IMG/VR virus record: IMGVR_UViG_3300032313_000564
Coordinates: 4,993 to 68,992 of that record
From: a virus
Length of the DNA: 64,000 bases
Reading direction: 5' to 3' (one strand)
Below the pieces are notes generated by a model. The model worked only from the letters and a program-made list of their open reading frames with translations. It did not search any database and was not told the DNA's origin. Made by a program: the position numbers and the translations under genes. Of the stretch, positions 17,685 to 61,329 are shown piece by piece. The stretch's first letter is position 1, and each line of letters opens with the position of its first letter.

Positions 17685-17888
17685 TTATGGGGTATTGGTG
17701 TCTAGGCCATGCAAATGAATATAAGATTCAGTTGTCATTTCTTCTTCTGTTATGCCCTTATGTCTTGCAAACTGCTCTTTTAAAGCCGCTCCACAATCTG
17801 GACAAATTGCATATGCCCAATTGTAATCAATTGAATCTGCATACATATCTTTGTCGTCCATACAAACTGAACACCAAAATCTAAACAT
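17685..17888 (-). CDS. Zn-ribbon hypothetical protein
   Basis: CSVC...CPDCG; TAATG-coupled to the upstream tail gene. Confidence 0.65.
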   Translation of the reverse strand: MFRFWCSVCMDDKDMYADSIDYNWAYAICPDCGAALKEQFARHKGITEEEMTTESYIHLHGLDTNTP

Positions 17889-45590: not shown

Positions 45591-46271
45591 CTATAAACCA
45601 CCAACGTGAAGTGTTTGGCCAGTCAAACTATTTGACCTCTCGTCTAAAAGAAGCTCTACCAAATCAGATATATCTTTCATTTCAAACATGCGCTCAATTA
45701 TTTGTGCCTTTAAAGCAGGTTGATTTCCACCAACAATATGCTTTCTTGAAAGGTCGCTCATTATAACTCCTGGGGCAATACAATTTGCCCTTATTTTTGT
45801 ATTGGACAGCTGCTTTGCAAAGCCTCTAGTAAATGACTCTACTCCAGCCTTTGAAGCTGCGTACATAGTCGCTTCGTTAGATATGTGTGCAGCTAAACTT
45901 GATATATTTACTATAGATGTGTGAACTTCTGGATTCATATTTTGAAGGAACGCTTGACATGAATTAAACACTCCATTTAAATTTGTATCTATGAGGTTAT
46001 AAACTTTGTCTTCAAAAAATACTCCAGCTGCAGAAGGCTCATATATACCAGCGCAATTTATTAATCCAGTTACCTGTTTTTTGCTATCAAGTATGTCTCT
46101 AGATATTCTATAAAGCGCTTTTATATCTCTAACATCTGACATAATAGTTGGAAATTTAGGATCATACATTGGTTTATTTAAAGTAATTCCAAGAACTTCT
46201 TTACCCAACGAGTGAAGTCTTTCTGCTACATCCCGCCCCATTCCAGATCCAGATCCAGTTACAATTATCAT
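45591..46271 (-). CDS. Short-chain dehydrogenase/reductase (FabG-like SDR)
   Basis: TGSGSGMG, INCAG, VNISS, YAASK, ANCIAPG. Confidence 0.92.
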   Translation of the reverse strand: MIIVTGSGSGMGRDVAERLHSLGKEVLGITLNKPMYDPKFPTIMSDVRDIKALYRISRDILDSKKQVTGLINCAGIYEPSAAGVFFEDKVYNLIDTNLNGVFNSCQAFLQNMNPEVHTSIVNISSLAAHISNEATMYAASKAGVESFTRGFAKQLSNTKIRANCIAPGVIMSDLSRKHIVGGNQPALKAQIIERMFEMKDISDLVELLLDERSNSLTGQTLHVGGL

Positions 46272-46921
46272 TCTGAACCGTCCGAATAGTATGGATTCTT
46301 TCTATTGTGGTACCAGTTTGGCAAAGAATATCTTGTTCCCTTTGTTACCGCATCAACCTCATGAACATAAACAAAATTAGATGGGAAGAAAAGTATTGTT
46401 CCAGCCTCTGGCTTAAGCTCAAGATTAAGATGTGGGAATCTTAATGTTCCGCCTTCGTAATCATCATTGAGATATAGCAATGCAGACAAAACTCTGCTAC
46501 TTATTCCATGATCTGAATGAGCTGGTAAAAATCCACTTTCTTTATATTTTAAAACATGCATTGTTTTTTCTCTAGCCTTAATATTTTTTTCTGCGTAAGG
46601 ATAGATAGTGAAGTAGTGATTAAGTGCAGTTTCAAGAGAGCCAAATAGCTCTGAAGATATAAAATGTTGTTCTTTATAAAATTTATCAGAAATGGATATG
46701 TCTTCTGGTTTAGGCAAGAATTTTTGCCAACAGAAAACAGTTTTTTCTGGACCGCCATGATCATAATCCCAAGCAGTCCATTCTTTTACAAAAGGAGACT
46801 GATAAGACTCATCTTGCTGTCTTTTTATTTCCAACTCTTCAATCTTATCTATAATAAGTTGTGGGTCCTTGATAATTCCTTTGTACTGAACTACGCCAAG
46901 CGCAAGCTGTTTAAACTCCAT
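46268..46921 (-). CDS. 2OG-Fe(II) oxygenase, prolyl-4-hydroxylase-like
   Basis: HSD...LYLNDDYEGG...FPS...HEV..V.KG.RY. Confidence 0.9.
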   Translation of the reverse strand: MEFKQLALGVVQYKGIIKDPQLIIDKIEELEIKRQQDESYQSPFVKEWTAWDYDHGGPEKTVFCWQKFLPKPEDISISDKFYKEQHFISSELFGSLETALNHYFTIYPYAEKNIKAREKTMHVLKYKESGFLPAHSDHGISSRVLSALLYLNDDYEGGTLRFPHLNLELKPEAGTILFFPSNFVYVHEVDAVTKGTRYSLPNWYHNRKNPYYSDGSE

Positions 46922-47463
46922 TAGCATCCCTCAAAATCTGGATCCATAAACTCTTTTTGCGTTGATTGCATAAAGAGTGCCGTATATCTGTTGCCAGTTT
47001 CAACTTTTGAAACACCGTGCAAATATTCATAGTCGTTTCCTGGGAAAAATAATGCAGAGAATTTCTTTGGACTGTGTGAAAAATTTTGTTTTGGAAAATA
47101 TATGTCTCCCCCAGTGTAGCCATCATTGAGGTATATTACAGAGCTATATTCTATAAAAGGCTCCTTTTCTATTGCATCTATGTGAGGATTGCCACTCATT
47201 CCTGGGCCCCACCCTGAACCAAAAGATTTTGTAATTATCACGTCTTTATCTGTTTCAAAAAATTCTTTCTGAATTAAATTAGCTTTCTTGGCATACTTTC
47301 TTAATATACTCATAACCGTATTATTGTACGGGAAAGCAGTTCCACCATTTCTGTCAGCATAATAATCTGGATAGTTATTTACAGAAGAAGGGTTTGTGAT
47401 CTCTGATATTAAAGTTTGTGCGTCGTAGTCTTCAATAAAGTTTTCAACTATTTTTATTTTCAT
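46921..47463 (-). CDS. 2OG-Fe(II) oxygenase, prolyl-4-hydroxylase-like
   Basis: HID...IYLNDGYTGG...FPG...HGV..V..G.RY. Start set at the ATGA overlap. Confidence 0.9.
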   Translation of the reverse strand: MKIKIVENFIEDYDAQTLISEITNPSSVNNYPDYYADRNGGTAFPYNNTVMSILRKYAKKANLIQKEFFETDKDVIITKSFGSGWGPGMSGNPHIDAIEKEPFIEYSSVIYLNDGYTGGDIYFPKQNFSHSPKKFSALFFPGNDYEYLHGVSKVETGNRYTALFMQSTQKEFMDPDFEGC

Positions 47464-48110
47464 CCTAGTGGCACCCAACTTTGATCGTAGTACCCACCAG
47501 CTGAAATAAATCTAAGCGGTGTAACGTCATAGGCTATAGTTATTCTATCTTCTTCAAATGGCCAAAGACCAATGCTATGGGGGTGTCCAGTTTCCGATAA
47601 AATTGCTCTATTGTTTTTATTAACATTTTCAAAGGCAGCATCACCATGTATTTTATAATAGGTGGAGCTTGGTTCTGCATTTACGCAATAGTATCCATGA
47701 AAATAAGGGAACCCTTTGCCCTCGGAATGGTCGTGATATGAATCTTTGTTGTCTAGGTCAACATGGTTTTTGCTTCCTTCGGAATTAAACCATCCATGCA
47801 ACATAAACTTTTCTTTTTCAAAATCAAGCCCATAATATTCACAGGCTTCAATTGTCAAAGACCTTAAAGTTTTATACAGGTTATAAATTTCTTCATTGTA
47901 AAACTGAAAGATGTTGTAGAAGTTGTCTATGCGCTGTGGATTATAGCTATTAAAATAATCTTTTGGTGCTGTAGCAAGTACATCTTTCCCTACACCAGCT
48001 ACTTGACCGTTCTTTAACTCTTCTTTTTTATTAAGCAAATATTCCTTTAAGCTATCTAAATCATTATTTAGGTAAGCGTCAAAAAATTTATGCGGCTTAG
48101 TATTATCCAT
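47460..48110 (-). CDS. Putative cupin/2OG-Fe(II) oxygenase-like protein (HDH...HPH family)
   Basis: GWFN...HDH...FHGYY...GHPH...RITIAYDV; paralog of 48940-49590. Confidence 0.7.
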   Translation of the reverse strand: MDNTKPHKFFDAYLNNDLDSLKEYLLNKKEELKNGQVAGVGKDVLATAPKDYFNSYNPQRIDNFYNIFQFYNEEIYNLYKTLRSLTIEACEYYGLDFEKEKFMLHGWFNSEGSKNHVDLDNKDSYHDHSEGKGFPYFHGYYCVNAEPSSTYYKIHGDAAFENVNKNNRAILSETGHPHSIGLWPFEEDRITIAYDVTPLRFISAGGYYDQSWVPLG

Positions 48111-48940
48111 TAATTTATTATCCTTGTCTTGTTTAGATATCTCTCTCCGCCAATTTTGTCGGTTTCTGATTTTTCAATTGTGTACTCAATATCATCATCT
48201 TCGAATGGAAATGGTATTACTTCTATCCCAAACAAACCAATGATATTTCTTTCATTGTTTTCTATAAACTTGTTGTATCTGTGAGTTAATGAAAATGGGA
48301 CATAGCCATTATCTTCAAGAGGAAGGGTGTTGTTTTGAAATAACTTTGTTGGGCAGCACAGTAAGTGGTAGTGTTTTTGATTTATCATTATAGACATCTT
48401 TTCTTCCTCTCCATAATATTTAAGCTCCACTGGGTAGCCAACACGCTTTATGTCAGAACTTAAACAAAATATAAAGTCTCTATCTATCATATCAACATTA
48501 GAATAATCTTCCGAAACAGACTTTATTTTTTCTATCATAAACAAATTTTTGTTTTTAAATTCTAATTTATGATTTCCAGAAATAATTGTTTGATTTTTAT
48601 ATCTTACTGATTCAATTTTATCTACTAAAGACACATCCCAGTCTTTAGACATAACGACTCCGTCTCCGCACTGCATAAAGTATTCTGAAGCAAGTATTCT
48701 TGATCCATCAAATTTGTGTGCAATTGGGCTTTTTATTGAATCCCACTTTGTGTGCTTATATATTATTTTTACGTGACTAGCAGTTATGTCAAACAATCTT
48801 GATCGCTCAACATTATTTTGATCTATGATGTAAAACGACAAGTCATGCAAGCCGCTAGATTTATTAACAATATCGGTAACATTATCAATCAGATCTTTAT
48901 TCTGAAAGCTGTATACAAATATGCCAATACTTTTCTTCAT
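48110..48940 (-). CDS. GT-A glycosyltransferase-like protein resembling GT60 (Skp1-hydroxyproline GlcNAc transferase), diverged
   Basis: SIGIFVYSFQN..L...V....S...L.F.IIDQ, EYFMQ...KDWD..L and YYGEEEKMSI parallel GT60 motifs as recalled. The DSH motif is altered. Confidence 0.55.
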   Translation of the reverse strand: MKKSIGIFVYSFQNKDLIDNVTDIVNKSSGLHDLSFYIIDQNNVERSRLFDITASHVKIIYKHTKWDSIKSPIAHKFDGSRILASEYFMQCGDGVVMSKDWDVSLVDKIESVRYKNQTIISGNHKLEFKNKNLFMIEKIKSVSEDYSNVDMIDRDFIFCLSSDIKRVGYPVELKYYGEEEKMSIMINQKHYHLLCCPTKLFQNNTLPLEDNGYVPFSLTHRYNKFIENNERNIIGLFGIEVIPFPFEDDDIEYTIEKSETDKIGGERYLNKTRIIN

Positions 48941-49590
48941 TATAGGAGAGGTATCCAATGCTGCTGTGGTGCATTTGCTTCAATTAAGCTCTTTAAAGGC
49001 ATTACGTCGTAGGCTATTGTTACTCTAGGACCTTCCCAATCCCAGTCTCCCATTGCATGTGGGTGACCCATTTCAGAAACAATCATTCTATTATTCTTAT
49101 TATGGTTTGCAGTTTCTGTGCCAAAAACATTATAGTAGGTGATTGAGGGCTCTGCGTTTACTGAATAGTAACCGTGAAAATAGGGGGCATAAGGGCCGCC
49201 GTGATCATGCCAATCAAGCTTACCAGTATGATTGTAATTAATGTTAAACCAACCTTGTACCATATACTTTTGTTCTTCAAAATTAACTCCGTAATATTCA
49301 CACGCTTCTTTTATAATATCAGAAAGTGATTTATATAGCTTGTGAATCCCATCATGGTAGAACTGAAAAACATTATACTCTCTCCACTTAATTGTTGAAA
49401 CGCTGGAAGAGGAGAGCCAAGCATCTTTTTGATTTACTGGAGTGATTCCCTTTAAGCTTAGATTTTCCATAGCCGCATATTGATTTTGCAAGAATGTCGC
49501 TAGGTCTGACAAATCGTTATCCAGATATCTTTCAAAAAATTTATGTTCTTTGCCGCTTGGCTTATTAAGCATCATCGGATTGTAGTCCAT
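48940..49590 (-). CDS. Putative cupin/2OG-Fe(II) oxygenase-like protein (HDH...HPH family)
   Basis: GWFN...WHDH...FHGYY...GHPH...RVTIAYDV...WIPL. Confidence 0.7.
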   Translation of the reverse strand: MDYNPMMLNKPSGKEHKFFERYLDNDLSDLATFLQNQYAAMENLSLKGITPVNQKDAWLSSSSVSTIKWREYNVFQFYHDGIHKLYKSLSDIIKEACEYYGVNFEEQKYMVQGWFNINYNHTGKLDWHDHGGPYAPYFHGYYSVNAEPSITYYNVFGTETANHNKNNRMIVSEMGHPHAMGDWDWEGPRVTIAYDVMPLKSLIEANAPQQHWIPLL

Positions 49591-50341
49591 CAGATATTCC
49601 TTTTCTGTAATTTTTCCTTTGCCATATATAATTTTTATAATATGCAAATATTGATATTCTTCTTCGTTCTTCTTTAATCTTGTTTTCTTCTATACTCTTT
49701 TCGGAGTAATCTATTTCCAAATCCCAATCATCTCTTTTGATTGGTATCATTTGAAAGATAGGGGTTCCTTTTGGTATTGTTCCAATAAAATTCCTTTTTA
49801 AAAAAAAGGCAGTAAATACTGGAGTGTGCCATTTATCTGTATCAATTATCCCAGATAAAGTCGTGAATGGCAAGTCGTGCCTATTCATTGGGTGGGTTAT
49901 TAGCATTGAGTATTCTGGTGGAGTCTCACAGTACCAATTTACCTTCCATCCAAAATGTAGGGGGTGATGGGCTGTAGGAACTGGGACGTCAATCATATTT
50001 CTTTTATCTATTATCATGGCTTCCCCGTCCCAGGTTATTGTAGGGAATCCGTCCTTATCTAAATCAACATGCACGTCATAGTCAAGCTTGTACATGTAGC
50101 CAGCAGTCAGGGTATCAAAAAATGGCATACATAATTTAGTTCCAGCCGCACTTCCGTCAGTTCCACGATCATTTACTGGGTGAAGTTTAGATATGTTGTT
50201 AGACTTTTGAAAACGAGAAAGTCTTCTATACCAATCTGGTAGAAACCTTACAGAGGGTTCTGGTTCTGAAAGATAATTATTACTCTTCGGATCAAAATTA
50301 CTTCCAAACGTTGCTGGGGTAAACTTTACTACTTTACTCAT
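49565..50341 (-). CDS. DUF6065-like protein
   Basis: PDWY...KLCMPFFD...GY...HPMN...GIIDTD...KGTPIFQMIP.KR; paralog of 51041-51757. Confidence 0.6.
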   Translation of the reverse strand: MSKVVKFTPATFGSNFDPKSNNYLSEPEPSVRFLPDWYRRLSRFQKSNNISKLHPVNDRGTDGSAAGTKLCMPFFDTLTAGYMYKLDYDVHVDLDKDGFPTITWDGEAMIIDKRNMIDVPVPTAHHPLHFGWKVNWYCETPPEYSMLITHPMNRHDLPFTTLSGIIDTDKWHTPVFTAFFLKRNFIGTIPKGTPIFQMIPIKRDDWDLEIDYSEKSIEENKIKEERRRISIFAYYKNYIWQRKNYRKGISDGLQSDDA

Positions 50342-51044
50342 TGCAAAGCCTGTCAATAAAATCGGAAGATGCATTTATTTGCATTTCATACATATATGAA
50401 CCCCTTTCTATTATTCCAACAGTTTCTGTTTCCATATGCCTTTTAGACTTAGTAAAATAAAAATCAATAAAGCAAGGTTCTTTTATTCTATCATTTTCGT
50501 TGGATTTTGTAAAAGAGCCCCTAAAGTCCATAATTTTAATTGATGGGTTTTCTATTGTTGAGGTGACAAAAAAATCAATATCCTCATCTATAACCCAAGG
50601 AGTATATAATTTAAAGCACCTATCAGAAATAATATCCATGCCTGAAGTATCATATACATTGGGGGATGGGTAAAATTGTCTTTGCCAAACCTTATCAACC
50701 GAATAAAAAATCTCATTGATTGGTTGTGATTTAAATATACCAAGGTGCCCAAGCGGTGGGTCAGCAATCTGAATTAGCATGTCAGCATAATTATAATATT
50801 CTATTGTAGCTGAAGTATCCGAAGTTTTAATAACTTTTGGCCTAATAGAAAAAAAAGAAGCATATAAATTTACTGGTTTTAATATTTTGTCGTGATACTC
50901 ACGGCTAAATTTTACTTCATTCCAGGCAGCCCATTTAGGGAACATGTTAGAATAATTCATTATTTCTGCAAAAGTCATAGTGCCCATCTTGCTCCAAGAC
51001 TCTGCTTCATATGGTGTTTTTAATATGTTTTTAGATGGCTTCAC
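50334..51044 (-). CDS. Hypothetical protein of the modification cluster
   Basis: 236 aa, overlapping both neighbours; C-terminal GIIERGSYMYEM echoes the G.I.KGTP..Q motif of the flanking paralogs. Confidence 0.7.
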   Translation of the reverse strand: MKPSKNILKTPYEAESWSKMGTMTFAEIMNYSNMFPKWAAWNEVKFSREYHDKILKPVNLYASFFSIRPKVIKTSDTSATIEYYNYADMLIQIADPPLGHLGIFKSQPINEIFYSVDKVWQRQFYPSPNVYDTSGMDIISDRCFKLYTPWVIDEDIDFFVTSTIENPSIKIMDFRGSFTKSNENDRIKEPCFIDFYFTKSKRHMETETVGIIERGSYMYEMQINASSDFIDRLCNE

Positions 51045-51757
51045 TTAAAGGTTTTCTTTGACCACTTTTTTAAACGATATCCATTTTGAAAAACAGATCG
51101 TACTGACAATTGGCTCGCTCTGTTTGCAAGATCAGAGTCTTTATCTTTATTAATTTCGCTTTCCCAATCATCTCTCTTAAAAGGTATTACTTGTAATAGC
51201 GGAGTTCCTTGCTTAATTACACCTTTAAAACCCTTTTCAACAAAGAAAGAAAGATATCCATCAGAAGGATATTCGTCGGTATCTATAAGACCTGGTATTG
51301 CTCGTATTGGTATATGGTCTGCATGTATCGGAGCAATGAATAATGAGCTATAACCTGGTTCTGTTTTTGCAAGCCACATTGGATGTATTCTTAAAACATC
51401 ATTGTGGAAGTAAGGTGGTATTGGGTACTCCGATATTTGCTCTTTAAGGTGATGGGCCAAAAGAAATTTTTGAAACTCCATAACATCATTTGCAACTTCA
51501 AACTTTACTCTTTCTCCCGTAGCGTCAATATTCAAATCCATTGGACAAAATAAATAATATCCTGCTGCCATTGCGTCAAACACTGCCTGACATTTTTTTA
51601 CGGTAAGAAGCATATTCCCGTTATAAACACTATTGTCATTATTTAGATAGCTTTCTTGTTTCTTCCACCATTCAGGAATATGTTTTTGAATAGATTCTGG
51701 CTTTGGGAAAACACCAGCAAGAAATCTGTATTTTGGAATAAATTCTATTTTGCTCAT
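51041..51757 (-). CDS. DUF6065-like protein
   Basis: PEWW...KKCQAVFD...GY...GLIDTD...KQGTPLLQVIPFKR. Confidence 0.6.
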   Translation of the reverse strand: MSKIEFIPKYRFLAGVFPKPESIQKHIPEWWKKQESYLNNDNSVYNGNMLLTVKKCQAVFDAMAAGYYLFCPMDLNIDATGERVKFEVANDVMEFQKFLLAHHLKEQISEYPIPPYFHNDVLRIHPMWLAKTEPGYSSLFIAPIHADHIPIRAIPGLIDTDEYPSDGYLSFFVEKGFKGVIKQGTPLLQVIPFKRDDWESEINKDKDSDLANRASQLSVRSVFQNGYRLKKWSKKTFK

Positions 51758-52323
51758 ACTAAAGGTATCCATTTCTGATAATACTGTCTGTGTAAATATT
51801 CTAAAGGTGAAATATGTAGTTCTATCAAAACAAGATCTTTACTTATATCGTTAAATTGAACTCTTGTGTTATGGTCAAGTAATATTAAATTGCCTGGAAC
51901 TAAATTAGTTTTATTATCGTTAATTAAAATAAACTCATTGTTGGAGCTAACAACATAGAAACCAAAGAAAACTGTTTTAAAATTAGGGCCAAAATTTAAA
52001 TCTACATATGGTGGAATCTGCTTATTGTCCATAACTCTTGCATATAAGTAGGGATAAGATCTTTCAAAATTAATGTTGTTTTCTAAAAATAAATCTTTAG
52101 CAGCAGAGCATACTTCACGATAAAGACTGTATATTTCTTTGCTATACATGCCAAAAAAATTAAATGTTTTATTGTCCACCAAAGAAATTCTTTTTGCTTT
52201 GTCTTTTATATTTTTACTAAAGCCTTTTGATATGTCTACTGTTTCCTCGTACATGGAATCAACCATAGAGTTATAGCTATTAAACATATAAAAATTATCT
52301 ATGCCTTTAATCTCTTTTATCAT
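51754..52323 (-). CDS. Degenerate paralog of the HDH...HPH cupin-like family
   Basis: Shares FN.F..Y..EIY.LY, FFGFY.V and the C-terminal WIPL, but lacks HDH and HPH. Confidence 0.6.
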   Translation of the reverse strand: MIKEIKGIDNFYMFNSYNSMVDSMYEETVDISKGFSKNIKDKAKRISLVDNKTFNFFGMYSKEIYSLYREVCSAAKDLFLENNINFERSYPYLYARVMDNKQIPPYVDLNFGPNFKTVFFGFYVVSSNNEFILINDNKTNLVPGNLILLDHNTRVQFNDISKDLVLIELHISPLEYLHRQYYQKWIPLV

Positions 52324-52942
52324 CTTTATCCCAAATACTCATAGAATGCCACCCAGCTGGTCTTATTGGGTCTTTGTATGCATCATTATCTGATTGTATC
52401 AAAACTTGTGGTTTTACGCCACCCATAATATAAGAAAGCTCTTCTTCTTTCGATATGTCTACCCTTTTCATAAATGTCATTAGTCTGGTCATTTTCATTT
52501 GTAAATCAAATCCAGCCTGAGTATGTGCCCCGCCTTGCTTTACCATTACATTATAATAAAGTAGAAATATTGAATATCCTAATATGGCAAGTGAGGAGTT
52601 AATCCTTTTTCTTCTATGATTTATAGAAGTATAAAATCTATCTGCAAATGCTGTGTGATAATTATTTTTTTCATCATACTGCCCCATTATAATAGTTGCC
52701 CAGGAAGCAGGATAATCGTTATTAATAAAATTAGAGAATACCGCTGTTCCTTCTTGGTGATCAGAATTTACATATACACATTCTATTGCTCTAGCGCCAT
52801 GTCTATCATTTAGCATTGTCCACTGTATCCAAGATCCCTTTAAGTATTTAGGATATCGCCTAAAAAGAGGTATGATCTGGCTTTTATACCAGATCACCCT
52901 TTTGAAACCGTAGTCCAATATCTGCTTGATATTGTCTAGCAT
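52307..52942 (-). CDS. Hypothetical protein, possibly GNAT-fold
   Basis: RFYTSINHRRKRINSSL resembles GNAT acetyl-CoA-binding motif A; T.AG..L lies downstream. Confidence 0.45.
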   Translation of the reverse strand: MLDNIKQILDYGFKRVIWYKSQIIPLFRRYPKYLKGSWIQWTMLNDRHGARAIECVYVNSDHQEGTAVFSNFINNDYPASWATIIMGQYDEKNNYHTAFADRFYTSINHRRKRINSSLAILGYSIFLLYYNVMVKQGGAHTQAGFDLQMKMTRLMTFMKRVDISKEEELSYIMGGVKPQVLIQSDNDAYKDPIRPAGWHSMSIWDKDDKRD

Positions 52943-52945
52943 TTA

Positions 52946-54340
52946 TTAAGCTGGTGGATTGTTTGGATCAACAGGGTTATCCTGTTGAGATTGCTTCCAT
53001 TGCTGATAAAGCTCTTCTAGCGAAGTAGATAGATTTTGTTCTGGCGAGGTTATAACTCCTGGCGCATTTAAATCTAAAGGCTGTGAATCGTGAACCAATG
53101 CATTGTCTGTAAAGAATACGTCGTAAGGCTCGGTGTTAATTGTAATAACTAACTCTTTTCCTGTTGATTCTCTTAGTTCAATAATTGGCTGCCAGTCTTG
53201 GAATGTAGGAGAGAATACTAGATCTGATTCTACTACATCAGTAACATTAACAAACTTTCCAAGTCCGTCTCTCTTTACAAGTATGTAGTGAGATATGGAG
53301 TATTTATTTCCGTTAATAACAATAACCTTGTCAACAATGTGTGCTGATAAAGCAGTAATTGTAGTTTCAACTGCTGTGTTTATTACTGGATTCTCTTCAG
53401 ACCAACCTGCAAAGTATTCTGCAATTGGGACCTCTGTTGCTAGATCTAATCCCTCAATATCAGCTGAGTAAAGAACATCTCCTACTGAAAGGTTATGTGC
53501 TAGAACTAGTCCTTCTGGGACCTTAGAGCTGATAAGTGTATCTGCACCAATTGATTTAACTGGTGTGAAACCAAATGGAGTAAATCCAAACGGAGTAAAT
53601 CCAAACGGAGTAAAGCCAAACGGAGTAAAGCCAAATGGCGTAAATCCGAATGGAGTGAAGCCGAATGGCGTAAATCCAAATGGGGTGAAGCCGAATGGCG
53701 TAAATCCAAACGGAGAAAATCCGAAAGGAACAAAGCTAAATGCTGTTGTTACGTTTCCAGATGCCCCAGATGTACCTGAGTTACCATTTGCATTTGTTGC
53801 ATAAACTGTATATGTCTGAGCTGTGCCCATTTCTTGACCAACTGCTACAGATGTGCTTGCTGTGTCTCCAGCCTTTCCGTCAGATGCTGCCCAGCGATAG
53901 TTTGTAATTCCCTTTCCACCATTTGCTGGGGCTGACCATGAGACGCTGTCTTGTCCAGCACTTGGAGAAGAAGCGCTTGGTGCTGAAGGCGTATTTGGAA
54001 CTGTTGTTGCTGTAACTGAAGCAGAAGCTGCAGACGCAACAGATGTTCCAGAAGCATTTGACGCACGAACTGTGAATGTATAAGCAGTAGCAGACAAAAG
54101 TCCTTGTACTGTTAGTGGGGAAGAAGCTCCAGTGGCTGTAAAGCCTCCTGGAGACGACGTTACCGTGTAAGAAGTAGCAGCAGGCGAATCACCTGGTAAG
54201 CTAAAGGATACAGTTACCGCACCATTATTGTATGGACGGTTTGTTCCAACATCTGTTGCTGATGTAATTGACGGCTGTTTAGGCTCAAGGAAGTCATTGG
54301 CTGCCTGTGATCTTTGTCCGAATCTTTTAATAATTGCCAT
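52946..54340 (-). CDS. FN3-domain virion protein with (FGFTP)n repeat and C-terminal Hint domain
   Basis: Two FN3-like units, 12 pentapeptide units, then Hint blocks SIGADTL...VGD, YSISHY and VFFTDNALVHD. Confidence 0.85.
   Translation of the reverse strand: MAIIKRFGQRSQAANDFLEPKQPSITSATDVGTNRPYNNGAVTVSFSLPGDSPAATSYTVTSSPGGFTATGASSPLTVQGLLSATAYTFTVRASNASGTSVASAASASVTATTVPNTPSAPSASSPSAGQDSVSWSAPANGGKGITNYRWAASDGKAGDTASTSVAVGQEMGTAQTYTVYATNANGNSGTSGASGNVTTAFSFVPFGFSPFGFTPFGFTPFGFTPFGFTPFGFTPFGFTPFGFTPFGFTPFGFTPFGFTPVKSIGADTLISSKVPEGLVLAHNLSVGDVLYSADIEGLDLATEVPIAEYFAGWSEENPVINTAVETTITALSAHIVDKVIVINGNKYSISHYILVKRDGLGKFVNVTDVVESDLVFSPTFQDWQPIIELRESTGKELVITINTEPYDVFFTDNALVHDSQPLDLNAPGVITSPEQNLSTSLEELYQQWKQSQQDNPVDPNNPPA
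53087..53554 (-). other. Hint (intein-like) domain, Ser1...His-Asp, 156 aa
   Basis: Block A SIGADTLI...LSVGDVL, block B SxxH, blocks F/G ITINTEPYDVFFTDNALVHD|S. Confidence 0.75.
53561..53740 (-). repeat. 12 x 15-bp coding tandem repeat (FSFVP, FGFSP, 10 x FGFTP)
   Basis: Units such as tggagtaaatccaaa and cggagtaaagccaaa on the + strand; the FGFTP units differ only at synonymous sites. Confidence 0.97.
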
Positions 54341-54361
54341 TTATATATCTCCTAAGTTTCT

Positions 54362-56113
54362 TTAAGCTGAAAGATCGCCCATTACGATCCATGTATTTGC
54401 TGCTCTCTTTAAAAGGGTAGCTGATGACCACTGGGTTCTTAATTTTAATCCTGGTGTTGCATTAACTGTGACTCCACCTGCACCAGCAATTGAAACTTGG
54501 CCAGTACCTGACTGAAGAATATCAATTGATGTTCCAACTGGGTAGTTAACTGTTGCATCTGCTGGAATTGTAACTGCTACTGCTGAAGCAGAAGAAACTT
54601 CAATTAAGTTATCTCTTTCAGTAAGAGATGAAAGTGTGTATGCTGCTGTTTTCTGAATAATTGGTGTGCGTGAAGGAACGCCTTCTTTTGTCTGTGTGCC
54701 GTCTGTAAACGCTACTCCTGCTGCTGCAACTGTTACTGTGCCAGTAAATGTTGGTGAAGCAAGTGGAGCCTTTAGAGCAAGGTTTGTTGTTACTGTTGAT
54801 GCGAAGTTTGCGTCATCACCAAGTGCTGCTGCAAGTTCGTCAAGAGTATTTAGTGCTGCTGGAGCACCTGTTAATAATGCGTTAACCTGTGATGTTGCAT
54901 CTGCGATTGCTTCTGACTTTGCAGTTGCAATTGCTGAAGCCTGTGCTGTAGATACTGGCTTAGCTGAGTCTGCTGTGTTGTCAACATTTGCTAGGCCTAC
55001 TGAAGACTTTGTAAGTGCTGCTACTGCTGTAGATACCTTTGTGTCTGCTGCAGTACCTGCTGCTGTAATTGCTTCTGATTTAGCAGTTGCGACATTTGCT
55101 GTAGTTGCAAGAAGTGAGGTGTCTGCAATTCCGTGAACATTTGTTGTGTCTGCTGTGTGAACACCAAGAGCTGTATCTGCAGCGGCTATTGCTGCTGTTT
55201 GCGCTGTTGAAGATGCTGTGTCAGCATAAGACTTTGTTGCAAGAAGTAGTGTGTCTGCAATGCCGTGAACGTTTGTTGTATCTGCTGAGTGTCCTGAAAC
55301 TACACCATCTGCATACGTACGGTCCTGAGTAGACTTGCTGTCTGTGTATGTATTTGCTGATGTTTCTGCACTTGTTGCTGCTGCCATAGCAAGACCATGC
55401 TGTGTATTTACATATGAAACAGTTTCATTTATTTCTGTATCTGTGTATGTATTTGCTGCACCAAACTTTGTATCTGTGTATGTCTGTGCTGTATTAAATT
55501 TTGTATCTGTGTATGTAGTAAGGTCTGTTCTTGCTGTAGTAACGTTTGCTAGTGTTGCAAGTAAAGAAGTGTCTTGAATTCCGTGAACATTTGTTGTCTT
55601 TGCATTGTGTACATCTAGAGCCAAAAGATCTTGTGTCTGTAGGTACTCTGCATATGCTCTTGTAGCAATTACTGTTAGGTCGGTCTCTGATGAAGGAACT
55701 TTACCCTGTGCATTAAGAGATGCTACTCCGTTGACTGACCCTCTATCATCTAGTGGAATGTAGGTTGAATCTGCTGTGTTGCTTAATGCGCTAACTGCTG
55801 AATCTACATATGCACGATTTGCCCATACTGCGTCATTAATTGCAATGGTGATTGTATTTGCGCCATCGTTGTAAGTCTTTGTAAGACCTGTGCCCATTGT
55901 GAGGGCTGCGTCAATTGCGTCTTGTGATATTTCGGTAATACCTGCAGTATCTGCGTTAGCATATGAAAGTGCTGTCCAGGTAGCTGTTCCGTTACCAAAT
56001 TTAAATTTATTTGTATCTGTTTCAACACCCATTTCTCCTGCTGCCAGGACTGGGTTTGTTGTGGACCACTGTGAAGCGGTTCCTCTTCTTACTTGAATTC
56101 TTACTGTTGCCAT
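54362..56113 (-). CDS. Long fibre protein with an Mtd_N-like N-terminus
   Basis: RIQVRRGTA..W...NPVLAAGEMGVETDT.KFKFGNG...W..L.Y; three HxxxTTNVHGIxDT repeats. Confidence 0.85.
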   Translation of the reverse strand: MATVRIQVRRGTASQWSTTNPVLAAGEMGVETDTNKFKFGNGTATWTALSYANADTAGITEISQDAIDAALTMGTGLTKTYNDGANTITIAINDAVWANRAYVDSAVSALSNTADSTYIPLDDRGSVNGVASLNAQGKVPSSETDLTVIATRAYAEYLQTQDLLALDVHNAKTTNVHGIQDTSLLATLANVTTARTDLTTYTDTKFNTAQTYTDTKFGAANTYTDTEINETVSYVNTQHGLAMAAATSAETSANTYTDSKSTQDRTYADGVVSGHSADTTNVHGIADTLLLATKSYADTASSTAQTAAIAAADTALGVHTADTTNVHGIADTSLLATTANVATAKSEAITAAGTAADTKVSTAVAALTKSSVGLANVDNTADSAKPVSTAQASAIATAKSEAIADATSQVNALLTGAPAALNTLDELAAALGDDANFASTVTTNLALKAPLASPTFTGTVTVAAAGVAFTDGTQTKEGVPSRTPIIQKTAAYTLSSLTERDNLIEVSSASAVAVTIPADATVNYPVGTSIDILQSGTGQVSIAGAGGVTVNATPGLKLRTQWSSATLLKRAANTWIVMGDLSA

Positions 56114-56131
56114 TTTGATCTCCTATTTTAT

Positions 56132-56140
56132 ATTATAGCA
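56132..56140 (-). promoter_or_regulatory. Extended -10 promoter (TGcTATAAT) heading the fibre-Hint-enzyme operon
   Basis: TGCTATAAT, then AGGAG RBS, then ATG 56113. No intergenic gap longer than about 21 nt occurs downstream until 45591. Confidence 0.6.
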
Positions 56141-56154
56141 TTTTTTGTTTTAAA

Positions 56155-56493
56155 CTAGGCTATTTCGCCTGAGTCAAAAACGAGTGAAGCATTTGTTGAT
56201 GTCGGTGTTCCGCCATCTGCAAATTTAGTTGCAGTTGTAACTACACCATTTGCCTGAACTGTATATACTGGCTGGCCATCATAATCTATTGCTAGACCAA
56301 TGTCCATCCAGGAAACCATGTCATCACTAGGTATTTGAGAAACCAATGCGATTGGCTCCCAAATTCCGTTGATGTAAATTTCTAATTGATTCGAGGCTGA
56401 GTTAAATGCTACAGGAGTAGACCCCAGTGTTATTTGATTGCCCTCTACTACGAGGCCATTCTTTACTCTAAAATTCTTATCTGTTGTTGCCAT
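56155..56493 (-). CDS. Small virion adaptor-like protein
   Basis: N-terminus KNFRVKNGL.VEG is shared with 56559-57941; C-terminal DGG/DSG motifs. Confidence 0.65.
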   Translation of the reverse strand: MATTDKNFRVKNGLVVEGNQITLGSTPVAFNSASNQLEIYINGIWEPIALVSQIPSDDMVSWMDIGLAIDYDGQPVYTVQANGVVTTATKFADGGTPTSTNASLVFDSGEIA

Positions 56494-56558
56494 TTAAGTT
56501 CACATATCCCCTAATTGTTTTTGTGGGGTTTTGGAAGGACCCCATACCTTTTATTTAA

Positions 56559-57941
56559 TTATTTAAGAAGTGTTCCAGATACTTTAACTGTTGAGTTATC
56601 TGCTGGAGTTACTCTTATTCTTACATTTGAACCTGATACATCTGCTGTAATAGTTCCTCTTGATCCATTAGTTCCGACAATTGCATATTCTGTAATTGCT
56701 ACGTTATCTGATGAATCTAATGTTATTAGAACTTCTGAAACTTCATTATGTGTTGCGTTGTCAATCTTAACAAGAACCTTAGCTGAGCGATAATCTGCCT
56801 TTGCCCACTCATAAGCTGTTCCAGCAACTGCTGCTGTCCCAGATGATGAAGCCGCAAATTGCTTAGCTTGATCATTTACGTTTAGTGCTGTAAATGCTGT
56901 TGTTCCTGCTTGCTGAGCTGTGTTAGCAGCTGCTGCTGTTGCTTCCGCTGCTGCTTGTGCTGCGTTGGCCTTAGTTGTTGCATCTGATGCTGCTGTCGCT
57001 ACTGCTGCTGCTTGAGCTGCGTTAGCCTTGGTTGTTGCGTCAGCTGCTGCTGTCGCTACTGAGGCTGCGTCTCCTGATACTCTTAGAGCTGCTTCTGCGG
57101 CTACCTTAGATGCTGCGTCTGCTGCTGCATCTGTTGCTGCTTCTGACTTTGCAGTTGCAATTGCTGTTGTAACATCAGCTGAGTTAGCCTTTGTTGCTAG
57201 TGCTGATGTAAGAGTTGTTGTGTAATTAGCATCATCGTTAATTGCTGCTGCTAATTCGTTTAATGTGTTAAGAAGTGCTGGTGCACCATCTACTAATGAA
57301 TCTACTGCACTTGAAATTGCTGTATTACGGTTTGTAACCTCTGTTGAGATTGCAGTTGAAAGTGCTGCTGCTGCAGTAGCTTCTGCTCCTGCCTTTGCTG
57401 CATTTGCCTTAGTTGTAGCGTCTGCTGCTGCTGCAGAAATTGCTGCTGCTTGAGCTGCATCTGCCTTGGTTGTAGCGTCTGCTGCTGCTGCAGAAATTGC
57501 TGCTGCTTGAGCTGCGTTGGCTTTAGATGTAGCATCTGCTGCTGCAGTTGAAACTGAAGCTGCATCGCCTGATACTCTAAGTGCTGCTTCTGCAGCTACC
57601 TTTGTTGTAGCATCTGATGCGGCTGCTGAAATTGCAGATGATGCTGCGGCATTTGCTTTTGATGTTGCATCTGCTGAAGCTGTGGCTTCTGCTGCAGACT
57701 GTGCTGCTGCTGCTGCGCCTGCTGCATCAAATACACCAGACTTGATAGAAAGCTTTCCAGCTCCGTTTAGTTCAAGCTGTGTAGACTCTACTGATTTTAC
57801 AAGAGTTGCACCGCCAACAAGATTAAGAATATAATTGTCTGATCCTGTTTCTGTAAGTATATTTTGGCCATTGATTGTACCTGTTGTACCTTCAACGATG
57901 AGGCCAGATTTAATTCTAAAATTCTTTACTACTGTTGCCAT
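56559..57941 (-). CDS. Ala-rich coiled-coil fibre protein
   Basis: Many DATTKANAAQAAA-type repeats and a C-terminal beta domain. Confidence 0.8.
   Translation of the reverse strand: MATVVKNFRIKSGLIVEGTTGTINGQNILTETGSDNYILNLVGGATLVKSVESTQLELNGAGKLSIKSGVFDAAGAAAAAQSAAEATASADATSKANAAASSAISAAASDATTKVAAEAALRVSGDAASVSTAAADATSKANAAQAAAISAAAADATTKADAAQAAAISAAAADATTKANAAKAGAEATAAAALSTAISTEVTNRNTAISSAVDSLVDGAPALLNTLNELAAAINDDANYTTTLTSALATKANSADVTTAIATAKSEAATDAAADAASKVAAEAALRVSGDAASVATAAADATTKANAAQAAAVATAASDATTKANAAQAAAEATAAAANTAQQAGTTAFTALNVNDQAKQFAASSSGTAAVAGTAYEWAKADYRSAKVLVKIDNATHNEVSEVLITLDSSDNVAITEYAIVGTNGSRGTITADVSGSNVRIRVTPADNSTVKVSGTLLK
56930..57725 (-). repeat. Imperfect Ala-rich coding repeats (DAT(T/S)KA(N/D)AAQAAA; two KVAAEAALRVSGDAASV units)
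   Basis: Visible in the translation and in gctgctgc-rich DNA. Confidence 0.85.
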
Positions 57942-57966
57942 TTATATGACTCCTCTTACTGCTTTA

Positions 57967-58518
57967 TTATATTTTTATTGCTGTTCTTGTAAATCTAGCG
58001 GTTATTGCACCAGAAACTGGAGCTACCTTAAAACTAATTATACCTGAATTTTGTTCAAATGTATAAGTAAATAGACTTGTATTTGTGTTGGATACAATGT
58101 CGGATTCTACAACATGAACATCGACTCCATCGCTTACTGCTGTCAGATTAGATCTGTAGAAATATGCATTTTTTGTTATCTGTAAAGAGTACTGAACGCT
58201 TCTCCATGTATCTACTGCAAAGTGATCTATCTGAGTAGGATTTTCAATACCCGTTACTTCAAGATCATTGTTTCCCTCTAGTCCTAAAAGCGTAGAAATA
58301 GTATCAGTGTTGTTTGTTATACTAGCGACTGCTGTAGAAAGGTTGTTTACCTTATACGTGATTGTGGAGCTGTCCGCAGAATTTGTGACTCCAAGAACAT
58401 TTTCAATTGCCTCAATAGCATCATTAGCGTTGGCATGCTGTGCAGCATGCCCCGTTAGCTCATCTGTTGCTGCTGGGTTTGATAGATTGTCTTTTGATGT
58501 AGGAAATGAAGTTGCCAT
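57967..58518 (-). CDS. Virion structural protein
   Basis: FPTS.D...HA.QH...NDAIEAIE..LG N-terminal anchor; the C-terminal domain resembles that of 56559-57941. TGaTATAAT at 58551-58559. Confidence 0.7.
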   Translation of the reverse strand: MATSFPTSKDNLSNPAATDELTGHAAQHANANDAIEAIENVLGVTNSADSSTITYKVNNLSTAVASITNNTDTISTLLGLEGNNDLEVTGIENPTQIDHFAVDTWRSVQYSLQITKNAYFYRSNLTAVSDGVDVHVVESDIVSNTNTSLFTYTFEQNSGIISFKVAPVSGAITARFTRTAIKI

Positions 58519-58569
58519 TGCCCCCCCTTGTAAAATATGTACTAGTGTTAATTATATCAGAATTTATTA

Positions 58570-61329
58570 TTAAGCAGGAGGATTTTCCTGAGAAAGCTTC
58601 CATTCTTGATAAATTGTTTCTAATGCTTGTGAAAGATTCTGGTCGGAAGATGTTATTACCCCTGGAGTATTTTCATCAAACTCGTGAGAGTCATGGACAA
58701 TAGCATTATCTGTAAAAAATACATCATACGGCTCGGTATTAATAGATATTACAAGTTCCTTACCTTCAAGAACTTTAAAGTCTATTATTGGCTGCCATGA
58801 ATCAAGTAGTGGGCTAAACACCATGTCAGACTCAAGTACTTCATAGACTTTTACAAATTTTACAATGTTTTCTCTTTTAACTAAAACATAGTGTGAATAA
58901 GAATATTTGTTTCCGTTAATAACAATAACTTTATCAACAATTCTTGCAGACAACGAAACAATTGTTGTTTCAAGATTTGTATCAATATTAGGATTTTCTG
59001 TTGACCAGGATCCAAGGTACTCAGACAAAGTTTGTCCAGATGAAAGATCTAAGCCTTCAATGTCTGCCGTATACAAAATATCTCCAACAGAAAGGTTGTG
59101 GGCTAGGGTTAATCCTTCTGGAACTTTTGATGCTACAAGTGTGTCTGCACCAATTGATTTAACTGGTGTAAACGAAAACGGTGTGAAACCAAATGGAGTA
59201 AATCCAAATGGTGTGAAACCAAATGGAGTAAATCCAAATGGTGTGAAACCGAATGGGGTGAAACCAAATGGTGTAAAACCGAATGGAGGAACATAGCATG
59301 CATTTGGTATTCCCAATATAGCTATAATTTGATCGCTACTAAGATTAGGATCTTGTGTTTGCCCGTAGATATAACTTGTTCCAGATCCACCTGATGGTGA
59401 TCCGTATCCTCCGCTATATGCACCGCTAAATCCATTACATCTTACATATATTGCATATCCTGGTGCTTGGTACTGATATCTATTAATACTTACGGATGCT
59501 GGCAATGAAATATATCTTGTATCGTAAGCAGATCCAGCAATAGGAGACTGAGAAACAATTTTTCCATCTAACGTATAGTCTGAAGTTCCAGTGTTTTGGT
59601 TAGTTGTAAGGTTCCAATCACCATTAACTCCATCTGAAGTATATGTGCCCACATAATTTGGAGTATATACATATGTTACTGCTGGCTCTTCGTATACGTA
59701 CGAACTTACGCTTACGGTTAGTGGCAACTGATTTTGAGGAACTGAATATGTTCCAGCGCCTGGGCTTTGACTTGCGATTTGCCCAACAATCGAATTGTTT
59801 GAAGTTCCAGTTCCTGCCGCATAATAAATTACATAGTTTGTTCCATTACTGGCACTTGTTTGACCAACAAAATTTGGTACCACTACTGATGCAGGTGGAT
59901 TTTGAGTAGCAGTTGCAACTTGAGCTGACGCAACTACATCTGATGTGCCAGCGCTATTTGTTGCTGTTGCAAATGCTCTAAACCGTGTTCCAGCTTCAAC
60001 ATCTAATGCATTTACAGTATATGATGGGCTTACACCAGTTGCAAATACAAATCCGTCTGATATAGAAGTTGGTGTTCTGTATGAATCACCTACAATTGAT
60101 ACTGATGTAGATGTTGGGTTCGGTGTCCAGCCAGATGTAGATCCATATAATGTAGTGCCTGGATAAACTGCTCCATTTGCAGAAAGAAAAGCTAATCCAG
60201 AAGTTGGCTTGACGTTTGCTGATGTAGCTTTACCAGCAACCGCATCTATGTATCCAGAAAAACCTCTTTCTGTACCGTAAACTCTAACCTTCCAAGGTCC
60301 AGTTTCTACACCTGCACCAGTTTGTATATAGGCAAAATTACTTCCTGATGTTACTGGGCCACGATACCAAATCCACTGCATTTCATTTACTTCATCATTA
60401 AATGTTTCATAGTATATTTCATACTGAGTTTGATTAATATTAACAGCGTTCCAATTAATTCTAAGAGCTGTGTCATAAACATATGGAGATATTGCTTCTA
60501 TTGTTGAAGTTACAGATGGCTTTTTAGGTAGTAAATCAAGAATATCTCTACTTTGCCCGTTGCCAGTAAATTTAAAGTTAGGCTGCGCTGTTGCCCATTG
60601 CCACCAAGACAAAGCTTGGCTTGTGTCATTATAAGGCTGCACAGAAATTGACATTGTTGTTTTGCCAATTAAAAATGCTAAATCTGGAGACCCAAAATCT
60701 TTATCAAATAAGTTATTTTGTTTTCCAACAATTGTTAATTCTGTGTAAGGAATTCCTGGTCCTTGATACCATACCTTATATCCATCTGCACCTTCAGAAA
60801 CATCCCAAAAAAATCTTATTGATCCGTTTATATATCCGCTGCCATCTTGTTGAACAAGTGCTGTTGCATTTGCTATTCTTTGTGGAGGTAGTGGTGAGCT
60901 ATCAATTGATGCATATACTGGCTCACTATCTGAAGACCCATTAACTGCAATAACCTTACATCTAATAAAATATCCTACTTGACTTGCAGATAAAAGATAA
61001 CTGCTTGAAGTTCCATTTGGCAAATCTTCCCATTGTGTTGTAGAACCCTGAACATTGTATCCTTTTTGCCACTGATACTTATATGATTCTGGAGTTATAG
61101 TCCAAGTTCCATTGCTAACACTTACTGTTTGTCCTACTCCATCTCCAAATGATCCAGCAGACCATGTAAATTCTGGTAAAGAAATATTAGATTGCCCACT
61201 ATATATTTCAACCCAAGCAGATCCATTCCAAGTAAAAGCTTTTTTAGCGAATTGCCATGTGGCTCCGTCATAAAGCTTAACTAATTTTGAATTTTTCCAA
61301 CTTGAGCCATCAAATATTTTAATAGACAT
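58570..61329 (-). CDS. Ig/FN3/PASTA-like virion protein with (FGFTP)n repeat and C-terminal Hint domain
   Basis: DGxxW repeats, YKYQWQ Ig unit, two PN(F/Y)VG...SQSP.AG units, 8 pentapeptide units, Hint domain SIGADTL...IVHD. Confidence 0.85.
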   Translation of the reverse strand: MSIKIFDGSSWKNSKLVKLYDGATWQFAKKAFTWNGSAWVEIYSGQSNISLPEFTWSAGSFGDGVGQTVSVSNGTWTITPESYKYQWQKGYNVQGSTTQWEDLPNGTSSSYLLSASQVGYFIRCKVIAVNGSSDSEPVYASIDSSPLPPQRIANATALVQQDGSGYINGSIRFFWDVSEGADGYKVWYQGPGIPYTELTIVGKQNNLFDKDFGSPDLAFLIGKTTMSISVQPYNDTSQALSWWQWATAQPNFKFTGNGQSRDILDLLPKKPSVTSTIEAISPYVYDTALRINWNAVNINQTQYEIYYETFNDEVNEMQWIWYRGPVTSGSNFAYIQTGAGVETGPWKVRVYGTERGFSGYIDAVAGKATSANVKPTSGLAFLSANGAVYPGTTLYGSTSGWTPNPTSTSVSIVGDSYRTPTSISDGFVFATGVSPSYTVNALDVEAGTRFRAFATATNSAGTSDVVASAQVATATQNPPASVVVPNFVGQTSASNGTNYVIYYAAGTGTSNNSIVGQIASQSPGAGTYSVPQNQLPLTVSVSSYVYEEPAVTYVYTPNYVGTYTSDGVNGDWNLTTNQNTGTSDYTLDGKIVSQSPIAGSAYDTRYISLPASVSINRYQYQAPGYAIYVRCNGFSGAYSGGYGSPSGGSGTSYIYGQTQDPNLSSDQIIAILGIPNACYVPPFGFTPFGFTPFGFTPFGFTPFGFTPFGFTPFGFTPFSFTPVKSIGADTLVASKVPEGLTLAHNLSVGDILYTADIEGLDLSSGQTLSEYLGSWSTENPNIDTNLETTIVSLSARIVDKVIVINGNKYSYSHYVLVKRENIVKFVKVYEVLESDMVFSPLLDSWQPIIDFKVLEGKELVISINTEPYDVFFTDNAIVHDSHEFDENTPGVITSSDQNLSQALETIYQEWKLSQENPPA
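58690..59157 (-). other. Hint (intein-like) domain, Ser1...His-Asp, 156 aa (second copy)
   Basis: SIGADTLV...LSVGDIL, YSYSHY, ISINTEPYDVFFTDNAIVHD|S; same length as the first copy. Confidence 0.75.
59164..59283 (-). repeat. 8 x 15-bp coding tandem repeat (7 x FGFTP + FSFTP)
   Basis: Units such as tggtgtgaaaccaaa and tggagtaaatccaaa on the + strand. Confidence 0.97.

Follow-up and report, generated by a model that had tools for sequence, protein, structure and literature searches.

Background

The Peptidase_S74 module, which Pfam describes as 'Chaperone of endosialidase', is an intramolecular chaperone of phage fibres and spikes that is removed by self-cleavage at a Ser. The C-terminal autoprocessing domain of Hedgehog proteins (HhC) has a Cys1 nucleophile that follows Gly-1, lacks a terminal Asn and a +1 nucleophile, and contains an active-site Asp46 and Cys143. 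It is described as a Hint domain with a downstream sterol-recognition region (PMC12054796). According to Mills 2014 (PMC4031507), type A and type B BIL domains give mainly cleavage products, and type B is characterized there by a lack of similarity to intein block G. Inteins with Ser at positions 1 and +1 splice via oxyesters and, in the account of PMC10189870, have an extra His near Ser1 (motif NX, [K/R]-His). For BIL2 of the Tetrahymena BUBL polyubiquitin-like locus, conjugation of a ubiquitin-like domain to lysines has been reported (PMC8616854). The present analysis concerns a stretch of 64,000 nucleotides, hereafter the window, from the IMG/VR virus record IMGVR_UViG_3300032313_000564 (positions 4,993 to 68,992), in which two genes, p1 and p2, encode proteins that almost certainly end in a Hint domain.

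The favoured reading, to which a probability of about 0.45 is given, is that p1 and p2 carry a fixed, non-mobile Hint module that cleaves the precursor at a Lys-Ser bond and thereby removes itself. The two proteins, which appear to be virion-surface, fibre-like proteins, would be synthesised as precursors with the autoprocessing module at the C-terminus. Ser263 of p1, or Ser725 of p2, would attack the Lys-Ser peptide bond in an N-to-O acyl shift assisted by the Ser-x-x-His of block B. Resolution of the ester, presumably by hydrolysis rather than ligation, would release an N-terminal part ending in an FGFTP repeat, and the Hint domain and tail, roughly 200 amino acids (aa), would be discarded. 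The tail would be an accessory helix of the module in the clade of p1 and p2. The module is read as self-removing because the reaction at the N-terminal junction is the only one that every member of the family can perform; it would be a Hint-based counterpart of the self-cleaving Peptidase_S74 chaperone carried by other fibres of the same phage.

Architecture of p1 and p2

Both genes lie on the minus strand and encode the features listed below, in which, as in the text, a slash within a motif marks a junction; position 1 is the first residue of the Hint domain and +1 the residue that follows it.

52946..54340 (-): p1 gene, 464 aa; N-terminal segment and two Fn3 domains (Pfam fn3, E 3e-8), FGFTP repeat, Hint domain, tail
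53741..54340 (-): p1 N-terminal part, aa 1-200, with the two Fn3 domains (Pfam); presumed mature functional part
53561..53740 (-): p1 repeat, aa 201-260, 12 FGFTP-like units (TRF period 15, 82% DNA matches)
53552..53557 (-): p1 predicted scissile junction Lys262/Ser263 with the Ser1 nucleophile (model residue 13 equals intein residue 1)
53087..53554 (-): p1 Hint domain, 156 aa, S263-D418 (AlphaFold, VIA and family profile)
53288..53299 (-): p1 block B, S348-I-S-H351, the TxxH equivalent (aligns with block B of the Aes123 PolB1 intein)
53084..53092 (-): p1 C-terminal junction His417-Asp418/Ser419 (model residue 168 equals the last intein residue)
52949..53086 (-): p1 tail, 46 aa, S419-A464; amphipathic helix L437-D454 at 52979-53032
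58570..61329 (-): p2 gene, 919 aa; N-terminal part unrelated to that of p1, FGFTP repeat, Hint domain, tail
59164..59283 (-): p2 repeat, aa 683-722, 8 FGFTP-like units (sequence, TRF)
59155-59160 (-): p2 predicted junction Lys724/Ser725 (sequence)
58690..59157 (-): p2 Hint domain, 156 aa, S725-D880 (alignment to p1)
58891-58902 (-): p2 block B, S810-Y-S-H813 (sequence)
58687-58695 (-): p2 C-terminal junction H879-D880/S881 (sequence)
58573..58689 (-): p2 tail, 39 aa, S881-A919; helix motif at 58582-58635

The C-terminal similarity of the two proteins is far beyond chance: BLASTP aligns them with 177/245 identities (72%, E 1e-124) over repeat, domain and tail. Because the next segment reaches only E 0.042, the part common to p1 and p2 is the C-terminal cassette alone; the N-terminal part of p2 has a weak PASTA-like match that falls below the Pfam cut-off (E 3.3e-4). 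The cassette consists, in order, of FGFTP units, Val-Lys, a 156-aa domain of the form SIGADT...S-x-S-H...V-H-D, a Ser, and a tail with the motif PGVITS..QNLS..LE..YQ.WK. These elements had been pointed out in an earlier, sequence-only reading of the window, whose description of the K/SIGADT start, the SxxH of block B and the VHD/S end in both 156-aa domains is correct residue for residue, and whose tail motif is present after both domains. That reading had given the range 52946-59157 for the pair, which runs from the stop codon of p1 to the first codon of the p2 domain and takes in three unrelated fibre genes.

No third copy of the cassette turned up when all six frames of the 68,992-bp genome were scanned. 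The two copies of Hint domain plus tail are 65% identical at the DNA level, and the FGFTP units, perfect as protein, show about 82% DNA matches, the differences being synonymous codons. The cassette and its duplication are thus old and have been maintained by selection at the protein level. The number of FGFTP units varies from 3 to 13 among close homologs. A pentapeptide-repeat beta-helix was considered for (FGFTP)n, but quite different aromatic/Pro repeats occupy the same place in relatives, which argues for a linker-like region.

Evidence for the Hint fold

Neither p1 nor p2 matches a Hint family of Pfam at E<=1, in a phmmer search of PDB sequences the single domain had no match better than E 1.1, and AlphaFold (AF2) run on the single sequence of the module gave a poor fold, with a predicted local distance difference test score (pLDDT) of 35. 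A HMMER scan of 1.84 billion representative sequences (50% clustering) identified 111 relatives at E<=1e-3, and an alignment of 78 sequences was used both for a family profile and for structure prediction. Against PDB sequences the profile matches best the Aes123 PolB1 intein, a cysteine-less phage intein (9hth, 8.1e-7), then the gp41-1 intein (8.6e-7), the BIL domain of Clostridium thermocellum (2lwy, 2.8e-5) and several further inteins. PF14890 is matched by 11/78 members at E<=0.01, although not by the p1 and p2 copies, which match no Pfam Hint family.

With the family alignment, AlphaFold predicts the p1 module at pLDDT 90.1 and a predicted template modelling score (pTM) of 0.85. Foldseek returned 42 PDB matches at E<=1e-3, and those listed, up to E 8.5e-4, are all inteins, BIL domains or Hedgehog Hint domains. 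Structural alignment with VIA, giving Z scores of 13-17 across 120-140 residues, placed BIL2 of BUBL (Z 17.3) and the Ssp DnaB mini-intein (Z 17.1) closest, followed by the C. thermocellum BIL domain (Z 16.5, root-mean-square deviation 1.7, 130 residues) and Hedgehog 1at0 (Z 16.5). Residues 13 to 168 of the model fall on intein residues 1 to last, end to end with mini-inteins; thus Ser263 takes the place of Cys1 and Asp418 that of the terminal Asn. The domain is of mini-intein size and the model alignment leaves no room for an endonuclease. The sequence-only reading had named the lack of a predicted Hint fold as something that would refute it; the confident model and its structural matches show that the fold is predicted. 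Fold, profile and catalytic motifs agree, and the C-terminal domain of p1 and p2 is with near certainty a member of the Hint superfamily.

Comparison with described systems

The Hint domains of p1 and p2 resemble the type A BIL domain (2lwy) in fold, in their location on variable, non-enzymatic, surface-type proteins and in the lack of an endonuclease, and relatives in the phage family with Cys1...His-Asn and no +1 nucleophile fit type A. However, the p1 and p2 copies have Ser1, a terminal Asp and Ser+1, whereas type A is defined by a C-terminal His-Asn and the absence of a +1 nucleophile; they are also phage-encoded, lie behind an aromatic/Pro repeat at the very end of the protein, and are missed by the Pfam models of the Hint clan. 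They are not type B BIL domains because block G is present, the L-V-H-D of the family aligning with the L-V-H-(N) of intein block G.

With the class-1 cysteine-less intein 9hth they share Ser1, the block-B His, the penultimate His, Ser+1 and a phage origin, and the class-1 arrangement of His-Asn (or Asp/Gln) followed by Ser, Thr or Cys at +1 is found in H417-D418/S419 and H879-D880/S881. Unlike inteins of this type, they lie outside any conserved enzyme site, end in Asp rather than Asn, lack a conserved motif-NX His (as far as an uncertain mapping allows), and belong to a family that holds Ser/Thr and Asp at the block-F Asp/His positions. They are not regarded as canonical inteins because no homolog with joined flanks was found among the 119 p1 homologs analysed or in a tail-only search of limited sensitivity, and because they do not sit in a conserved host site.

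Hedgehog HhC (1at0) has the same order of cargo then Hint, the Hint fold (Z 16.5), a TxxH-type motif and a helical region after the Hint domain. In contrast, p1 and p2 have Lys-1/Ser1 and keep His-Asp/Ser, and their tail of 39-46 aa matches no tail-related Pfam family and is absent from most relatives. BUBL BIL2 (6y75/6tmm), the joint-best structural neighbour (Z 17.3), likewise processes the C-terminus of an upstream domain, but it is a eukaryotic Cys1/Asn domain, and its ubiquitin-like cargo or acceptor is not seen in p1 or p2. Peptidase_S74 is comparable as a C-terminal module that follows a repetitive shaft and has presumably the same role; the analogy is one of function only, the fold and family being unrelated. 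Membership of p1 and p2 in Peptidase_S74 was rejected, as neither matches PF13884 at E<=1. By analogy, the p1 and p2 Hint domains would work most like the C-terminal autoprocessing domains of the BIL and Hog type.

Conservation across the family

Key columns were read in 115 domain copies with a hidden Markov model built from the matches. Of the 80 readable copies, 65 have Ser at position 1, 13 have Cys and 2 have Gly; both Gly copies have a Ser within two residues. The block-B His is present in 104/112 copies, with Ser (76) or Thr (33) three residues before it (109/112 together). The invariant Ser/Cys and block-B His indicate that the reaction at the N-terminal junction is under selection, and this junction is probably active. 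The last domain residue is Asp in 76, Asn in 31 and another residue in 4 of 111 copies (Asp or Asn, 107/111), and the penultimate residue is His in 62, Tyr in 23, Phe in 19 and Leu in 6. The +1 position holds Ser, Thr or Cys in 51/111 copies, the nucleophile being absent in the other 60. Downstream of the domain, 86/111 copies have at most 10 residues and 13/111 have more than 20. Cys1 copies end in His-Asn followed by a non-nucleophilic +1 residue (...HNK, ...HNA), often the only residue after the Asn, and at loci L116 and L117 the Hint copy ends exactly at the terminal Asn, with nothing following it. Short tails, the limited occurrence of a +1 nucleophile and these two loci are the reasons why chemistry at the C-terminal junction is not considered the common function. 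Tandem pairs of Hint domains, about 20-25 residues apart, occur in two long metagenomic proteins (P0044 and P0109).

In the profile alignment to 9hth, the columns of the intein block-F Asp and His are mostly Ser (67/114) and Asp (100/114) in the family; we read these columns as F:4 and F:13 in the numbering given by Mills 2014 (PMC4031507).

In all copies that have an N-terminal part, an aromatic/Pro/Gly repeat of low complexity, such as FGFTP, PPFFPP, PPYYN, GFYH or poly-Pro, stands in front of the domain. The N-terminal parts are Ig-like or adhesion-type, with fn3 in 21 and PASTA, a peptidoglycan-binding domain, in 19 of the 78 members scanned; He_PIG, TIG, PKD and CBM96 occur once each.

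The family has at least 2303 members, the number of proteins that reached E<=1e-5 when 8000 candidates were scored for p1. In a tblastn search against phages only 10 records, all of Erwinia jumbo phages, were found (25-28% identity). Their 'virion structural protein', a Cys1/His-Asn member carried by Erwinia Alexandravirus phages, is the nearest named relative and has the C-terminus Cys...T-H-E-H...V-H-N/T plus nine residues. Neighbours in BFVD belong to uncultured Caudovirales and bear automatic names ('PASTA', 'Fibronectin type III', 'Collagen triple helix repeat', 'Hint domain containing'), and in the ESM Atlas, too, the closest clusters are viral. The idea that the family resides in bacteria or prophages was considered and dropped, since one genome each of 185,579 prokaryote species yielded only 2 loci, both on contigs of roughly 10 kb in metagenome-assembled genomes. 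The family is essentially a phage family.

Interchangeable C-terminal endings

To compare endings on a common scaffold, 80 IMG/VR loci were fetched whose products are 48-97% identical to the first 200 residues of p1. Five open reading frames (ORFs) run off the contig; the 75 complete ones end as follows.

37/75: Hint domain, of several subtypes, the L116 and L117 copies included
20/75: aromatic/Pro repeat and a Cys-rich end of roughly 35 aa
8/75: the repeat itself
10/75: other domains

Cys-rich ends were seen at loci L068, L069, L075, L077, L079, L085, L090-L092, L095, L097, L099-L101, L105, L107, L111 and L118; this segment looks like a small, disulfide-knot-like tip. A similar exchange was found for the p2-related protein P0261, which has nine close-relative loci (75-82% identity). 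Six stop right after a PPHFPPFFPP repeat, two run off the contig, and one (L040) has the same repeat followed by GGGGG/Cys-Hint-...THN/VKANVT. Hint-less relatives end at the repeat or in other modules, never with the tail. These repeat-ending and module-swapped relatives argue that the Hint domain is one of several interchangeable C-terminal modules and that the N-terminal part plus repeat is a complete functional protein without it.

The tail-bearing clade

Among the p1 homologs, 119 of the best 120 of 2303 were analysed. The Hint domain is present in all 119 and the arrangement K/S...H-D/S in 104; the tail is 34-46 aa long in most and 97-98 aa in eight. Hint domain and tail are also kept in all 23 close homologs of p2. 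The module was found at 35 IMG/VR loci, where all 44 ORFs read have H-D/S and a tail; like the window, these loci often hold two paralogs separated by about 5 kb.

The motif L..(L/M)YQ.W is strongly conserved across 81 distinct sequences with a tail, in which the mean frequency of the top residue is 0.63 in the tail and 0.74 in the Hint domain. AlphaFold places a linker and helix at model residues 169-204 (helix 187-204) with pLDDT 85-88, which suggests that the tail packs on the Hint domain in the precursor. A hydrophobic residue at +4 occurs in short and long tails alike and the spacing from Ser+1 to the helix is constant; on sequence and model, the tail seems to behave as part of the Hint module. 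A homotrimer prediction with three copies of repeat end, Hint domain and tail gave ipSAE values of 0.00 and 0.00, which have no bearing either way on oligomerisation.

The sequence-only reading had compared the tail to the helical region by which Hedgehog-type ligases recruit a nucleophile. This comparison is not supported by the wider sampling: most family copies have no long tail, two end at Asn, and the terminal Asp or Asn is kept in 107/111. The tail is therefore an addition of one clade rather than a defining helper region.

Alternative readings

Several observations weigh against self-removal. The His-Asp-Ser(+1) of the clade is conserved far beyond what cleavage at the N-terminal junction alone would need, HDS being found in 104/119 close homologs and Ser or Thr at +1 in 36 of the 42 His-Asp copies of the representative set. 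In the 81 tail-bearing sequences Ser is the top residue at +1 with a frequency of about 0.99, the extreme end of the tail (...NPPA) is often kept, and the tail is under purifying selection, which is odd for a discarded piece. Moreover, rapid hydrolysis would not be anticipated for an oxyester at Ser1, and no residue that would activate water was identified. The column nearest to the motif-NX His, a mapping that is itself uncertain, holds His in 16/109 copies and Arg in 32, with His in p1 and Arg in p2, and the family has no second invariant His.

True splicing is the close rival because His-Asp-Ser(+1) is conserved. The module would be a fixed, cysteine-less class-1 mini-intein in which formation of the Ser1 ester, transfer to Ser+1, Asp cyclisation and an O-to-N shift excise the Hint domain and join the 39-46-aa tail to the FGFTP repeat, giving the product Fn3/Ig part - repeat - VK-S - tail helix. 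The clade has the full class-1 set (Ser1, SxxH, penultimate His, terminal Asp, Ser+1), its nearest solved intein by sequence, 9hth, is a cysteine-less Ser1/Ser+1 phage intein, and inteins ending in Asp are stated by Mills 2014 (PMC4031507) to follow this mechanism, with the Asp cyclising. The conserved tail, with a helix of its own and a length of up to 97-98 aa in some relatives, also speaks for splicing. However, neither the 119 p1 homologs, all of which keep the Hint domain, nor a homology search with the tail only, a search of limited sensitivity whose 14 proteins are all Hint-bearing orthologs, yielded a protein or allele in which the tail directly follows the repeat. Across the family most tails are of 0-10 residues and the +1 nucleophile is absent in 60/111, which leaves nothing useful to join; the block-F Asp/His positions of inteins are mostly Ser and Asp; and AlphaFold docks the tail on the Hint domain with confidence. 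On this evidence splicing is rather less probable than cleavage.

A retained, catalytically silent Hint domain could instead form a distal knob or binding tip, interchangeable with the Cys-rich knot or a Gly-rich domain; alternative small domains at the C-terminus of a conserved N-terminal scaffold are typical of receptor-binding tips. The nucleophile (78/80), the block-B His (104/112) and the terminal Asp or Asn (107/111) are, however, near-invariant at 25-45% identity, which is hard to explain without chemistry and renders a silent domain improbable. In Hedgehog- or BUBL-like ligation the ester would be captured by an outside nucleophile, so that the C-terminus of the fibre becomes covalently attached to a small molecule, to a Lys or the N-terminus of a virion protein, or to a host cell-wall amine, with the tail helix recruiting the acceptor. 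The order of cargo and C-terminal Hint domain is that of HhC (PMC12054796), and BIL2 of BUBL, joint-best in structure, is described as forming an isopeptide bond to lysines (PMC8616854). The PASTA domains of 19/78 members and the conserved amphipathic Trp/Tyr helix of the tail are likewise in keeping with ligation. No acceptor was identified, however; the tail is absent from most family members and has no conserved Lys (K or R follows the Trp), the terminal Asp or Asn is retained, unlike in Hedgehog, and alleles simply ending in the repeat exist. Hedgehog-like ligation is possible but without specific support, and a covalent phage-host or intra-virion bond formed by such a ligase in the phage particle, with the Trp/Tyr tail helix recruiting, is quite improbable.

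A selfish mobile intein that invaded two genes might be suspected from the presence of the Hint domain in 37 and its absence in 38 of the 75 complete ORFs with related N-terminal parts, and from the same cassette on two unrelated genes of one genome. Yet the 156-aa mini domain has no homing endonuclease, the cassette includes the repeat and stands at the 3' end rather than within a conserved site, the copies are only 65% identical at the DNA level, and other C-terminal modules swap likewise. Mobility is thus extremely unlikely. The sequence-only reading had already argued against selfish inteins, and the lack of an endonuclease insert, the variable virion proteins that act as hosts and the failure to find a flank-joined allele agree with it. 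Of the three outcomes that it had left side by side, we rank cleavage first, splicing second and ligation third.

Genome setting

The genome record has 68,992 bp and no terminal repeat, and all large genes of the window are on the minus strand. The window encodes a portal, a head protease, a major-capsid-like protein, a head-tail adaptor, a DNA polymerase and a terminase-like protein. A 2483-aa ORF at 25816-33267 (-) is, from its size and position, presumably the tape-measure protein, which presumably implies a very long tail. The virus is a tailed phage, as this set of portal, capsid, adaptor, presumed tape-measure and terminase-like genes shows. A 12-kb part of the window had no Megablast match among GenBank phages.

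The p1 and p2 genes are interleaved among the genes of a fibre-like block at 52.9-63 kb, three of which have Mtd_N-type N-termini and/or matches to tail-fibre PHROGs. Four ORFs, 54666-55136 (+), 55335-55577 (+), 57302-57565 (-) and 57517-57834 (+), overlap Ala/Thr-rich fibre genes in another frame or strand and look like by-products of GCx-rich repeats rather than genes.

Outside this block, Peptidase_S74 is found at the C-terminus of two fibres, one with collagen repeats (44377-45558 (-), E 2.3e-15) and one with fn3 (17888-20626 (-), E 7.8e-6). Because these two fibres of the same phage carry the module at the equivalent architectural position, a maturation role for the Hint module of p1 and p2 is a natural one.

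A run of small genes at 45591-52942 (-) separates the first of these fibre genes from p1. It includes a short-chain dehydrogenase gene (45591-46271), a 2OG-Fe(II) oxygenase gene (PF13640, 46268-46927, E 3.5e-16) with a paralog at 46921-47478, and two further paralog sets (47460-48110, 48940-49647 and 51754-52323; 49565-50374 and 51041-51772, the latter set with a weak match to DUF6065). The products of this run might modify the Pro-rich repeats.

Significance

A search of full-text literature, with subscription journals and supplements outside its reach, found no description of phage fibre or decoration proteins that carry a Hint domain at their C-terminus. The phage papers found to mention Hint concern, in the parts that do so, terminase or ribonucleotide reductase inteins (PMC3556154, PMC5259590). 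Such proteins bear automatic names in databases and have thus been noticed before, but not studied. What is new is a Hint subfamily that is specific to phages and for the most part free of cysteine, has an unusually composed active site, follows aromatic/Pro repeats at the ends of presumed virion proteins and is abundant in viral metagenomes.

If self-removal is true, the module would be a second way, unrelated to Peptidase_S74, to give fibre or decoration proteins a self-removing C-terminal module. For the intein field, the family is a large natural set of cysteine-free Hint domains that combine Ser1, a block-F Ser/Thr and Asp, and a terminal Asp. Split inteins that are both mesophilic and cysteine-less are said to be very rare, and to be in demand as tools of protein engineering (PMC10189870). 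One and the same family holds Hint domains expected to splice, expected only to cleave, or lacking a C-terminal flank, and it thereby offers a natural series in which to ask what turns Hint chemistry towards splicing, cleavage or ligation.

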